64,000 nucleotides of DNA, from the NCBI GenBank assembly GCA_964478545.1, contig CAYZIS010000001.1, forward strand, positions 7,943 through 71,942, read 5' to 3'. Source of the stretch: an uncultured Thermodesulfobacteriota bacterium. GTDB lineage: Bacteria; Desulfobacterota; Anaeroferrophillalia; Anaeroferrophillales; Anaeroferrophillaceae. Positions 15,133-47,366 of this stretch are shown here, in pieces. Every line of letters begins with the position of its first letter. Positions within the stretch are counted from its first letter, which is position 1. The position numbers and the translations under genes are program-made. The notes under the pieces are model-generated. The model was not told where the DNA came from. It saw only the letters and a program-made list of their open reading frames with translations, and searched no databases.

Positions 15133-16008
15133 ATGCGAACCTATCTCGACTGCTATCCTTGTTTCCTGCGCCAGGCACTGGCCGCTTTACGCCTGATAAC
15201 CGATCAGGAAGCAGAGCAAAAGCGGGTGCTTGACTTGGTCATGCAAACCCTGCCCACCCTGCCGCTGGAATATTCTCCCCCACGGATTGCCAGGACCGTC
15301 TATAGTATCATCGCCCGGGAAACCGGGGTTGAAAATCCCTATCGGGAAATCAAAATCGCCTCTAACCGGCAGGCATTGGCTGTCCTGCCGGAACTAACAA
15401 GAATTATTGAACGAAAACCAAACCGCCTACGGGCTGCAGCATCCCTGGCAATTTCCGGCAACCTCATAGATTTTGGTGTCCAGCACGAAGGATTTAAAGT
15501 CAGCGAAGGCTTGAATGGCCAATTTCCAGATCATTTTGATTTTGATGATTTTTCCACTTTTGAACAGCAGCTACCGGAAACCAAAAAACTGCTGTACATC
15601 GGAGATAACGCCGGAGAAATTGTCGCCGATAAAATTTTTATTTCGCAAATGAAGGTCGCCTATCCCCAGCTGGAAGTGGGATTTGCCGTCCGCGGCGCAC
15701 CCATCATCAATGATGTGACCATAGTTGATGCCAAACAGGTAGGCATGACCGAAGTGGCCAGAGTTATCAACAGCGGCAGCCGGGCACCGGCACTGCTGGA
15801 AGATGAGATGAGTCCGGAGATGGCTGACTGGTTTCTTCATGCCACGATGATTATCGCCAAAGGCCAGGGCAATTATGAATCACTGAGTCAGAGCGAGCTG
15901 CCCATATTTTTTCTGCTCCAATGTAAATGCCCGGTAGTTGCCGATGACTTGAAAACCCCGGTTGGCAGCACGATCTTCAAATACCATCATGGCTGCCAGG
16001 CAGAGTGA
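15133..16008 (+). CDS. DUF89/ARMT1-like damage-control phosphatase family protein
   Basis: 'LLYIGDNAGEIVADKIF' (DNAGE metal-binding motif). Confidence 0.7.
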   Translation: MRTYLDCYPCFLRQALAALRLITDQEAEQKRVLDLVMQTLPTLPLEYSPPRIARTVYSIIARETGVENPYREIKIASNRQALAVLPELTRIIERKPNRLRAAASLAISGNLIDFGVQHEGFKVSEGLNGQFPDHFDFDDFSTFEQQLPETKKLLYIGDNAGEIVADKIFISQMKVAYPQLEVGFAVRGAPIINDVTIVDAKQVGMTEVARVINSGSRAPALLEDEMSPEMADWFLHATMIIAKGQGNYESLSQSELPIFFLLQCKCPVVADDLKTPVGSTIFKYHHGCQAE

Positions 16009-16029
16009 TCATTTTCCTTCTATTTCACC

Positions 16030-16425
16030 ATGAAGATCATGAAGGACATGAAGAAGCGATTCAGCAAACATTCGAATCACATCATTGGATGTGCCATAGA
16101 AGTTCACCGTAATTTAGGTCCTGGGTTGTTGGAATCAATCTATGAACAATGCCTGGCCCAGGAATTCTGGTTAACTGGGATTAATTTTAAGAGACAGGAA
16201 GCTTTACCCATTGAATATAAAGGAATTTACCTGGATTGTGGTTATAGAATTGATTTATTAGTAGAAGATGAAATCATTATAGAAATTAAAAGCGTTAACG
16301 AAATTATCGGCATCCATGAAGCACAAATACTTACTTATATGAAATTAGCCAAAATCAAATATGGACTTCTGATAAATTTCAATGTTACATTGCTAAAAGA
16401 CGGTTTGAAAAGTTTCATTCTTTGA
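16030..16425 (+). CDS. GxxExxY family protein (PD-(D/E)XK-like), flanked by inverted repeats
   Basis: 'GPGLLESIYEQCL', 'YRIDLLVEDEIIIEIKSV', 'HEAQILTYMKLAKIKYGLLINFN'. Flanks 16028-16056 and 16427-16456 are imperfect inverted repeats. Confidence 0.75.
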   Translation: MKIMKDMKKRFSKHSNHIIGCAIEVHRNLGPGLLESIYEQCLAQEFWLTGINFKRQEALPIEYKGIYLDCGYRIDLLVEDEIIIEIKSVNEIIGIHEAQILTYMKLAKIKYGLLINFNVTLLKDGLKSFIL

Positions 16426-16476
16426 TTCTTCATGCTCTTCAAGTCCTTCATGGTAGAAAAAAAAGGAGGATAAATT

Positions 16477-16812
16477 ATGTCTGACTGCCTGTTCTGCAAA
16501 ATTATTGCACGGGAAATCCCGACCGACATCATTTATGAAAATGACCAGGTCCTGGCCTTCAGGGACATCAACCCCAAGGCTCCGGTACATCTTCTGATCG
16601 TACCAAAAAAACATTATGACACCTTGAATGATATTCCCGATAATGAAATGGAAATCATTGCTGAAGTCCACCGGACGGTTAAACATCTGGCCCTTGAATA
16701 TGGAGTAGCTGAGAGCGGCTACCGGACCCTGGTCAATACCAACAAGGAAGGCGGCCAGGTGGTTTTCCATGTTCATTATCACCTGATTGGTGGCCGGCAG
16801 TTGCCAGTATAG
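16477..16812 (+). CDS. HIT family (histidine triad) protein
   Basis: 'HVHYHLIGG' histidine triad. AAGGAGG RBS. Confidence 0.85.
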   Translation: MSDCLFCKIIAREIPTDIIYENDQVLAFRDINPKAPVHLLIVPKKHYDTLNDIPDNEMEIIAEVHRTVKHLALEYGVAESGYRTLVNTNKEGGQVVFHVHYHLIGGRQLPV

Positions 16813-46063: not shown

Positions 46064-46140
46064 ACCTATTTCCTTTTTATCTTACCTTAATAACTAATCT
46101 ATGCAGTTTTACACAATGAGATTAAAAAAAGAATCTAAAC

Positions 46141-46203
46141 CAGGACATGAAGGTCATAAAAATTTTTAGGCAAACTCTTTATGCTTCATGCTCTTCATGG
46201 TAA
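46141..46203. mobile_element. gene-less miniature derived from the GxxExxY cassette ends (GGACATGAAG...CTTCATGCTCTTCATGGTA)
   Basis: 14-mer CTTCATGCTCTTCA + TGGTA is shared with 16430-16456. GGACATGAAG is shared with 16043-16052. Confidence 0.55.
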
Positions 46204-46349
46204 TAACATTTTCAACGTGTTTTACTCAGTACTGTCCGGTATGCTTTTTGCGTCGTGTTCAATATCGGCAACCGGTGCTGTTTCAAGCGCGACATCGTGA
46301 GATGCCGTTGCTTTTCCCGGCGATTGGAGCGTGAAAGTTGCCATGTTTG

Positions 46350-46470
46350 AGCCCTACAGGGCGAGTTTGGCAACTTTAGCGCAATGAGCCGCTGGAAAAG
46401 CAGGCAATCGAGCGCCAAAAAGCGCTGAAATCAGCTCCGGTTGACAGTATGCAACTTTCTAACCAGACAC
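46350..46470 (+). repeat. Family-4 conserved element, copy B
   Basis: 'AACTTTAGCGCAATGAGCCGCTGGAAAAGCAGGCAATCGAGCGCCAAAAAGCGCTGAAATCAGCTCCGGTTGACAGTATGCAACTTTCTAACC' against 9961-10050. Confidence 0.5.
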
Positions 46471-46566
46471 TGCTGTGTTTTACTATGGCATAAACTTTTT
46501 TGCTTGCACCTACGCCGAGTGAGGTTACAATCATGACTATCCCGATCATTATTTTCTCATTATGAA

Positions 46567-46612
46567 AAAAGGTGACTATTATTCCTGCAACAGGAATCAC
46601 AGTCACCTTTTG
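46567..46612 (-). terminator. rho-independent terminator of the por/nuo operon (AAAAGGTGACTATTATTCCTG-CAA-CAGGAATCACAGTCACCTTTT)
   Basis: 19/21-bp stem with a U-tract on the minus strand, 26 bp after the stop of the NuoG-like gene. Confidence 0.75.
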
Positions 46613-46637
46613 AAACTAAAAACGGTTGAACAATCAC

Positions 46638-47366
46638 CTATTTTTTCATTGCCCGGCAGTCCCGGCACAAATCAAAAAAATCCTCCGGCAAGTCATACTT
46701 CTTCTGGATAAAACGCAGTTGAAAATCCGGAGCAAATTCCATCCCACATTCGCTGCAAGTCCGCAGTTTCAACACCCGGGACCAACGGTCGATGATCTTC
46801 TCCTCACCATTCTCCTGAATCTGAATGGCGTTGGTGGGGCAGACATAGACACAAGCACCGCAGCCGATGCACGATTCTGCCTCTTCTCCAAAGGGAGGAA
46901 CCACCACCCGTTCAGTTCCGCGCTGGGCAAAGGTAATGGCATTGGCACCAACAATTTCCCGGCAGACACGTTCACACAGACCACAGAGAATACAATCATC
47001 ATAATGAAGCTCGAAAGGGGAGCTTTCAATACCATATTCAACCGCTAGCTGATTCAACTTCGGAGAAGTATTGCAACGGGCCAACAACAGCTTCAGCACC
47101 ATCCGCCTTACCTTCCTGACTTTCTCCGTGTCCGTCTCCACCTCAATGGGATCAGTTATCGGATAATTACAGGAGGTAGTCAATGTCCGGCGGCCGTTTT
47201 TAATAACTTCAACCTGGCATAGGCGACATGCCCCGTAGGGTTCGAGAAGTTCATGATAACATAAAGTAGGGATAACAACTTGATTTGCTTTCGCTGCTTC
47301 CAGGATTGTCGTCCCTTCTTCCACCTGAACTTTTTTTCCATTTATCGCTATTTCTACCATCATCAT
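46638..47366 (-). CDS. NuoG/HoxU-like N-terminal iron-sulfur protein ([2Fe-2S] + His-ligated [4Fe-4S] + [4Fe-4S]), 242 aa
   Basis: 'CYHELLEPYGACRLCQVEV', 'CILCGLCERVCRE', 'CIGCGACVYVCP'. Confidence 0.8.
   Translation of the reverse strand: MMMVEIAINGKKVQVEEGTTILEAAKANQVVIPTLCYHELLEPYGACRLCQVEVIKNGRRTLTTSCNYPITDPIEVETDTEKVRKVRRMVLKLLLARCNTSPKLNQLAVEYGIESSPFELHYDDCILCGLCERVCREIVGANAITFAQRGTERVVVPPFGEEAESCIGCGACVYVCPTNAIQIQENGEEKIIDRWSRVLKLRTCSECGMEFAPDFQLRFIQKKYDLPEDFFDLCRDCRAMKK

Follow-up and report, generated by a model that had tools for sequence, protein, structure and literature searches.

The locus at positions 16023-16459 of the stretch studied here raises a simple question: is the small gene that it carries an ordinary housekeeping gene, or is it the cargo of a mobile element? 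The stretch (hereafter, the window) comprises 64,000 nucleotides (nt) from an uncultured Thermodesulfobacteriota bacterium (GenBank assembly GCA_964478545.1, contig CAYZIS010000001.1, positions 7,943 to 71,942 of the forward strand). A first-pass annotation, made from the letters of the window, had described the gene, a member of the GxxExxY family, as a mobile cassette with inverted-repeat ends, and a gene-less match at 46 kb as a derivative of the solo terminal inverted repeat (TIR) or miniature inverted-repeat transposable element (MITE) type. This interpretation is partly supported. We found that two inverted arms bracket a single open reading frame (ORF) coding for a predicted PD-(D/E)XK nuclease (GxxExxY/PF13366), that similar arms accompany related genes in more than 15 phyla, and that gene-less hairpins of the same kind outnumber the gene carriers. 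The nested layout and the surplus of gene-less hairpins point to a little-known selfish or mobile DNA element. We hold with about even confidence that the locus exemplifies a widespread palindromic element, in which the nuclease acts on the arm cores and drives the copying or relocation of hairpins and cassette in a manner resembling REPIN-RAYT systems. All functional statements are computational.

A predicted nuclease gene between two inverted arms

The ends of the gene are indeed inverted repeats, complementary at 24 of 29 positions in register from the outer ends, and a repeat search of the window recovered the arm pairs as matches of 17 nt (94%) and 14 nt (93%). Rather than plain inverted repeats, however, each arm is an array of three tandem 9-nt units, composed of a 7-nt core (CATGAAG) and a 2-nt spacer, with caps TTTCACC on the left and GGTAGAAA on the right. 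The purine-rich left arm (16023-16055, plus strand) reads tttcaccATGAAGatCATGAAGgaCATGAAGaa (tttcacc-ATGAAG-at-CATGAAG-ga-CATGAAG-aa), with cores at 16029-35, 16038-44 and 16047-53. The pyrimidine-rich right arm (16426-16459, plus strand) reads ttCTTCATGctCTTCAAGtcCTTCATGgtagaaa (tt-CTTCATG-ct-CTTCAAG-tc-CTTCATG-gtagaaa), with CTTCATG at 16428-34, CTTCAAG at 16437-43, CTTCATG at 16446-52 and the cap (G)GTAGAAA. The GxxExxY/PDDEXK_3 ORF (16030-16425, plus strand) codes for 131 amino acids (aa) from its first ATG, and the right arm begins 2 nt past its stop codon (16423-16425). Its three in-frame ATGs come from the left arm units, the alternative starts being 16039 (used in public gene calls, P0001) and 16048.

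The ORF matches TIGR04256 (149.8 bits against a cut-off of 35, E 4e-44) and PF13366 (143.8 bits against a cut-off of 22, E 4e-42). The family profile begins at residue 14-15, while residues 1-10 are translated repeat and are modelled as disordered. The catalytic D...ExK residues of PD-(D/E)XK proteins (D75, E85 and K87) are invariant among 27 homologues, as is E24. The AlphaFold model (pLDDT 90) has an alpha-beta core, for which Cas4 SSO0001, lambda exonuclease and RecE are the best PDB folds, each a weak match (TM 0.45-0.5), with the PD-(D/E)XK homing endonuclease domain 3r3p also among the weak ones; a sequence search against solved structures gave no match. Judged from motifs and model, the protein is a predicted nuclease made of a minimal PD-(D/E)XK domain of 118 aa, with no extra DNA-binding domain. 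The family is very large, with 20,060 clusters at 50% identity in a full HMMER scan (E<=1e-3).

Many relatives are annotated with N termini such as MKNMKGMK, MKSMKDMK or TTKDTKEEN. Across homologues the repeat units lie in various reading frames (TKDTK, HRGTE) or are untranslated, and in the CACGAAG type the ATG follows the last unit. Since the units are independent of frame, the MKxMK leader reflects a DNA or RNA element that happens to be translated, rather than a feature of the protein. Some relatives are two-domain GxxExxY fusions (P0361, P0362 and P0364, 263-295 aa), in which domain one keeps D...ExK and domain two has lost the catalytic residues. These natural fusions suggest, as far as sequence can tell, a dimeric working unit, perhaps with one active site per fusion, and a dimer would suit a substrate with two-fold symmetry.

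The first-pass annotation had treated the gene and its ends as a discrete unit, and this is supported by composition, by the surrounding operon and by the recurrence of the layout in other phyla. The gene and its ends have 28-34% GC, compared with about 50% in the flanks, and are foreign by this measure. Upstream, an ARMT1/DUF89-like gene (15133-16008, plus strand, TGA stop at 16006-16008) ends 14 nt ahead of the element, and downstream the ribosome-binding site and start codon of a HIT family gene (16477-16812, plus strand) lie 17 nt past it. Public contigs with an identical protein have the order ilvD-ARMT1-GxxExxY-HIT-methyltransferase, and in their annotation the relatives appear as Deltaproteobacteria, 'Candidatus Anaeroferro...' or Pseudomonadota metagenome-assembled genomes. 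One relative (L090, GxxExxY protein 90% identical to that of the window) carries the cassette intact, each side having three perfect units; two others (L083/L084, ARMT1 85% identical) keep the arms around a frameshifted pseudogene; and in L085 (ARMT1 82%) and L087 (85%) the gene is lost and a right-arm remnant stands immediately before the HIT ribosome-binding site. Three outgroups have no arms: L088 (ARMT1 66%, 44-nt spacer), L219 (60%, 92-nt spacer) and L218 (54%, overlapping genes). These three uninterrupted operons, together with the series of relatives, give the event its polarity: the cassette is an insertion into a conserved housekeeping operon, ilvD-ARMT1-HIT, and has since decayed in situ in some relatives. 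From these comparisons, it was acquired before the close relatives split and has been kept or eroded ever since.

The spacers of L085 (3430-3500) and L087 (3405-3480), orthologous to 16009-16476, also hold a solo hairpin of the CACGGAG/CACAGAG core beside the CATGAAG-type remnant, and hairpin families cluster at the same sites. The mobile nature claimed for the cassette is borne out by the operon insertion and by its decay to pseudogenes and arm remnants; recent mobility at this locus is not, as the gene has been inherited vertically with a dN/dS of 0.056 (window versus L090). Such a value means that the protein is under strong constraint, and a gene inherited vertically under purifying selection is not merely a transient passenger. 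In the same comparison (window 16069-16422 versus L090 2501-2869), dS is 1.0 for the GxxExxY gene and 0.43 for the flanking ARMT1/HIT genes, despite their shared synteny; this approximate doubling may reflect gene conversion from paralogues, a local rise in mutation rate or relaxed codon usage.

The terminal motifs do recur at 46 kb with no gene between them. The exact 14-mer CTTCATGCTCTTCA is found again at 46184-46197, followed by TGGTA, and GGACATGAAG at 46143-46152, both within an imperfect hairpin (46139-46203) that has no ORF and a loop of about 15-25 nt. The match belongs to the same repeat family, as a member without a gene, and is not part of a different repeat. Its left arm (46139-46161; ACC-A-GGA-CATGAAG-GT-CATAAAA) is degenerate, with the first unit partly missing; it is followed by an ORF-free loop (46162-46176) and by a right arm (46177-46203; CTTTATG-CTTCATG-CT-CTTCATG-GTAA) equivalent to that of the gene minus one 9-nt unit, CTTCATGCTCTTCA[AGTCCTTCA]TGGTA. 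With up to two mismatches, the 14-mer has 5 matches in the window against 0.72 expected (0 of 100 shuffles reach 5), and CATGAAGNNCATGAAG has 7 against 0.64 expected, six of them at the two element sites. These shuffle controls exclude chance for the repeat at both sites.

This hairpin sits within the 574-nt intergenic region between rph and a gene for an Fe-S protein. When the region upstream of rph was aligned among relatives, the intergenic DNA proved too diverged to yield an empty site precise to the base, and the hairpin was scored as presence or absence only: both L214, the closest relative (rph 93%), and L216 lack it, and one terminal unit is left in L215. The rest of the region (46212-46640) is Rfam-negative and highly variable among relatives, except for one stem at about 46560-46610 (minus strand); it directly adjoins the end of the Fe-S gene, is followed by a T run, is kept in L215 and looks like an ordinary terminator. 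The window has no second GxxExxY copy and no additional terminus, so that the genome-wide mobility put forward in the first-pass annotation can be examined only in other genomes.

Arms and gene-less hairpins across phyla

Further copies are abundant outside the window. We fetched 80 genomic loci of GxxExxY homologues, making 81 genes with that of the window, from more than 15 phyla (Planctomycetota, Verrucomicrobiota, Desulfobacterota, Acidobacteriota, Chloroflexota, Bacteroidota, Omnitrophota, Gemmatimonadota, Proteobacteria, a Methanothrix and others). Arms, taken as two or more tandem units no farther than 160 nt away, are present at 71 of the 81 genes, and 37 loci have one arm ahead of the gene and an inverted arm behind it. 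The left arm runs up to the start codon or close to it and the right arm typically starts 0-5 nt past the stop codon, with an anatomy common to almost all loci of tCACC-AC[GAAG]nn-CAC[GAAG]nn-CAC[GAAG] before the start and [CTTC]GTGnn[CTTC]GTGnn[CTTC]GTG-GTGAA after the stop. The unit period is 8-11 nt across elements, and the cores are CACAGAG (29), CACGAAG (26), CGCAGAG (5), CATGAAG (4), CGCAAAG (4), CACAAAG (2) and CACGGAG (1).

The core varies between elements yet agrees in both arms of one element. We counted covariation in 38 elements, over the 13 outermost positions of each arm. At four positions of the core both sides change together (e.g., G-C 19 / A-U 15 and A-U 21 / G-C 16) with almost no unpaired cells, changes on both sides account for 61 cells compared with 29 in shuffles, and the covariation score was reached by none of 500 shuffles. 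Pairing is 82% in register but 38-58% in slid registers.

The GxxExxY family is multi-copy and scattered over these phyla at 55-70% identity, a distribution that implies horizontal spread. As for the vehicle, phage records and IMG/VR held no phage copy and plasmids only 7 copies, mostly on megaplasmids, and we rejected carriage by phages or plasmids on these grounds. In half of the elements the left arm lies within about 25 nt of the preceding stop codon and the next start within about 25 nt of the right arm. Co-orientation with the neighboring genes (75-80%) was dropped as evidence, since bacterial genes in general share a strand about as often. The cap GGTGA often stands 5-9 nt before the start of the next host gene (L217 1870-1900, L010, L014, L072, L074, L075 and L082) and may serve as its Shine-Dalgarno sequence, as GGUGA pairs with UCACC of the 16S rRNA 3' tail. 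A cultured example is provided by Bacteroides finegoldii (NZ_OY725952.1, L217), in which the cassette sits flush between radA and the following gene.

The gene-less hairpins are not the occasional derivatives of the cassette that the first-pass annotation had supposed; they outnumber the gene carriers and form tandem arrays resembling bacterial interspersed mosaic elements (BIMEs). A metagenome scan by the arm pattern alone (ACCATGAAGNNCATGAAGNNCATGAAG) gave at least 120 loci; among the matches listed (120 metagenome loci) there are 78 hairpins in which a left arm faces a right arm across a loop of 5-160 nt, and only 8 loci have a GxxExxY gene. In the genome loci the distance between arms is bimodal, either 13-224 nt, with no gene, or about 370-480 nt, and every interval of the latter size between a forward and a reverse arm holds a GxxExxY ORF. 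A small AhpD/carboxymuconolactone-decarboxylase-like ORF (CxxC) lies between arms in L209 (140-615), the lone case of another gene family, which may be a coincidence.

Alignment of the flanks set the ends of the element, as similarity among 77 solo hairpins extends only about 7 nt beyond the first unit (consensus ttttYACC followed by CATGAAG) and the outer ends are ttttYACC / GGTRaaaa. No target-site duplication accompanies these ends: in 70 hairpins we found no excess of direct repeats at offsets of 0-11 and lengths of 2-8. Hence, of the solo-TIR or MITE derivative proposed for the 46-kb sequence, the gene-less hairpin of the same family stands, and its reading as a MITE or TIR transposon is not supported.

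Tandem mosaics of hairpins occur in L009 (1852-4433, 11.8 copies of a 225-nt unit), L046 (151-1742, 123-143 nt) and L114 (2544-3824, about 174 nt). In L046 and L009 a GxxExxY gene lies within the array, and such arrays could pass for CRISPR-like repeats. Three hybrid pairs (L133 4153-4231, L157 1890-1977 and L156 1946-2059) have a CATGAAG-type left arm facing a CGCAAAG- or CACGGAG-type right arm; these arms are unable to base-pair, so that arms behave as separable modules.

Nor is there a single architecture. About 10 of the 80 genes, each with its own leader of 30-50 nt, have a whole hairpin on either side, the two hairpins being direct copies of one another down to their loops. The copies are 98.6% identical over 139 nt in L040 (70-830), 99% over 108 nt in L024 (2845-3520), and 85-86% in L013 (2725-3720), L045, L047 and L034. 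In L004 (2700-4150) a 654-bp unit made of linker, left arm, gene and right arm is present as a tandem duplicate with 98.6% identity, and the linker contains roughly the last 25 nt of a GxxExxY gene and a truncated right arm, a relic of an earlier cassette.

Explanations for the element

The element, with two inverted arms of about three tandem 8-10-nt units each, caps TTYACC / GGTRAA and one enclosed ORF, was taken up by an ancestor of this deltaproteobacterium-like lineage in the short spacer of the ilvD-ARMT1-HIT operon. We infer that the nuclease, as a dimer, would recognize the 7-nt arm cores in hairpin- or cruciform-forming DNA, rather than in RNA, and that cutting at the arms would promote the copying or relocation of hairpins and gene cassette through recombination or repair, not through DDE-type transposition. 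The many gene-less hairpins would depend on the nuclease gene or act as its landing pads. This proposal rests on the position of the gene, on the matching cores, and on two modest associations: protein similarity is 62.1% within a core type against 58.7% between types (permutation p<0.001), and of 40 distal hairpins, 26 have the same core as the local gene, where 16.7 would be expected.

Several observations weigh against a nuclease acting on the arms. Protein and arms are connected by position only, and the protein clades follow core type only weakly, the difference being 3.4 points of identity. A bare 118-aa domain is a minimal candidate for a sequence-specific mobilizing enzyme. Ten of the 81 genes have no detectable arms, and the hybrid pairs, with arms of differing core face to face, indicate that a matched pair is not obligatory. 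Deviant units have no compensation in the partner arm. Spacer dinucleotides are complementary at 1.9 of 4 positions against 1.5 of 4 in cross-pairs, an excess driven by four near-identical planctomycete loci; the test is unconvincing, and base-pairing and protein recognition are not separable by it. The genes between direct hairpin copies are unexplained by a model with the gene in the loop. Finally, vertical inheritance under strong constraint is also what would be expected of a gene that benefits its host in a way unconnected with the repeats.

The main rival explanation is that the arms act in RNA, as a stem of roughly 30 bp that is cut by RNase III or hides the ribosome-binding site and start codon, insulating a foreign gene and keeping its expression low; the nuclease would have an unrelated role (defense, repair) and the element would spread by ordinary horizontal transfer and recombination. 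It is compatible with the nuclease-driven reading (the two are not mutually exclusive), and we consider it rather unlikely; it would explain the tight wedging of the elements and the predicted fold. In the predicted fold of 16012-16468, the arm-arm stem closes the cassette in both the minimum free energy and the centroid structure and buries the three ATGs together with the Shine-Dalgarno-like purine run, and the left arm is the sole sequence of this type available to the ORF. The cassette has no promoter or terminator above chance, so that it is presumably transcribed by read-through, and the neighbors are co-oriented. Elements are wedged between the stop and start codons of operons, with the terminal GGTGA 5-9 nt before the next start as if replacing a Shine-Dalgarno sequence, and complementarity is kept where both sides of the arms change. 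The solo hairpin at 46139-46203 is also predicted to fold on either strand, but the z-scores (about -2.1 to -2.4) are modest. Searches at the Rfam gathering thresholds found only tRNAs in the window (one tRNA) and 40 related loci, and no rRNA, so that no known RNA family or rRNA context applies. An RNA stem is further at odds with the uncompensated spacers and deviant units and with the hybrid arms that cannot pair. It leaves unexplained the sole recurrent cargo family, the tandem multiplication of hairpins, the core shared by the units of one arm that does not pair with itself, and the genes between direct hairpin copies.

A conventional MITE or TIR transposon, mobilized in trans by an unlinked transposase with the GxxExxY gene as a mere passenger, would account for the terminal inverted repeats, the small size, the gene-less copies and the absence of the rph-upstream hairpin from L214 and L216. 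It is very improbable given the lack of target-site duplications, a passenger that always belongs to one gene family, and arms that are arrays of short units gaining and losing members; nor do the gene tables of the contigs fetched show a transposase gene beside any element. Integration of the integron or Campbell type is improbable as well. Here, the whole hairpin would be an attC-like site, and a circular gene-plus-hairpin would integrate at any chromosomal hairpin by means of a site-specific or homologous recombinase. The genes between direct copies of complete hairpins are the expected product of such an event, or else of unequal exchange between hairpins, and the tandem cassette duplication in L004, the tandem hairpin arrays and the lack of promoters in the cassettes fit it too. 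On the other hand, in the window and most other copies the gene lies inside the hairpin and not beside it, the termini are TTYACC / GGTRAA instead of the attC cores RYYYAAC / GTTRRRY, and the cassettes are single and scattered in operons rather than arrayed at one attI. The gene tables of the neighborhoods fetched list no integrase, though no systematic search for one was made. There is practically no probability left for the repeat belonging to the protein (as an N-terminal MKxMKxMK peptide) or arising from a random match of low complexity. The many homologues annotated with such N termini would suggest it, but it is refuted by units in other frames or outside the ORF, by the inverted copy past the stop codon, by the gene-less hairpins, by residues 1-10 lying outside the profile in a segment modelled as disordered, and by the shuffles, which exclude chance.

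Significance and relation to known systems

PF13366 was listed as 'Unknown', with mixed bacterial and archaeal clades, in a 2012 survey of PD-(D/E)XK proteins (PMC3424549). In the full-text literature that we searched, GxxExxY is mentioned incidentally only and the flanking repeats are undescribed, although other literature or database curation notes might cover them. The systematic nesting of the gene in a palindromic repeat, together with the many gene-less hairpins, provides a testable role and a candidate substrate for a very large family. More tentatively, and at less than even chances, GxxExxY genes and their hairpins may form a class of selfish palindromic elements that spans phyla, a RAYT-independent counterpart of REPINs in which the minimal nuclease would recognize the short tandem cores in hairpin or cruciform DNA, drive the copying of gene-less hairpins and home its own gene into hairpin loops, or between hairpins, without target-site duplication. 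If the nuclease does mobilize or maintain the hairpins, this would be a second, mechanistically distinct solution to the REP/RAYT problem over most bacterial phyla, and would explain a common class of intergenic repeats as well as the mis-called N termini (MKxMK, TKDTK, HRGTE) in annotation. The 7-nt, programmable-looking cores, with several natural variants, could also interest those searching for sequence- or structure-specific nucleases.

The intervening sequences (IVSs) in the 23S rRNA of Leptospira and Coxiella carry S23p/four-helix-bundle ORFs and are excised by RNase III. Like them, the GxxExxY elements have a small ORF inside a long stem of flanking repeats, a highly expressed transcript as the site of insertion, and a patchy phylogeny, but they lie outside rRNA genes and carry a different ORF family. 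No gene for the four-helix-bundle IVS protein was found near arms in 1.2 Mb of loci, using approximate consensus sequences as queries. Free-standing homing endonuclease genes, such as seg and mob of T-even phages, include PD-(D/E)XK examples (I-Ssp6803I, I-Bth0305I). They share with our element a small nuclease gene wedged between conserved co-oriented genes, polymorphism among relatives and decay to pseudogenes; the inverted repeat arrays and gene-less hairpin satellites, and the absence of the family from phage collections, set GxxExxY elements apart. Integron cassettes are likewise compact, promoter-less single ORFs bounded by imperfect hairpin sites, and the minority hairpin-gene-hairpin layout is a further resemblance. 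They differ from our element in their attC RYYYAAC / GTTRRRY cores; GxxExxY genes are dispersed in operons and mostly inside the hairpin, and no integrase/attI platform was seen in the fetched gene tables, again with no systematic search made.

With MITEs, the element has in common the terminal inverted repeats on short non-coding copies (46139-46203 and the 78 solo hairpins among the matches listed) and a coding relative of larger size that shares their ends, the GxxExxY cassette, the product of which is not a known transposase. Unlike in MITEs, there is no target-site duplication and no DDE or other transposase, and the ends have a variable number of tandem units.

The closest parallel is found in the REPIN-RAYT/BIME systems, repetitive extragenic palindromes with an associated transposase (PMC3116915, PMC3479197, PMC3733652). 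Both are short intergenic palindromes that form hairpins, are far commoner than the associated gene and can build tandem mosaics of alternating orientation; in both, target-site duplications are absent, and the enzyme gene is itself flanked by inverted repeat copies, is under purifying selection and is inherited vertically at its locus. The RAYT enzyme is an HUH/Y1 transposase of the IS200/IS605-like type, whereas here it is a PD-(D/E)XK protein (PF13366) of roughly 120 aa; REPINs have a single palindrome of 20-40 nt with a GTAG or CGTC head, whereas here the arms consist of 2-4 tandem units of 8-10 nt and the outer ends, ttttYACC / GGTRaaaa, have neither head. Two further differences are that the GxxExxY ORF usually fills the hairpin loop exactly and that its family is multi-copy across more than 15 phyla at 55-70% identity. 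With an enzyme that is not an HUH transposase and repeats that have no GTAG/CGTC heads, the element is not a member of the REPIN-RAYT group; by analogy, it would nevertheless work like a REP system, and it appears closer to REPIN-RAYT/BIME than to MITEs.

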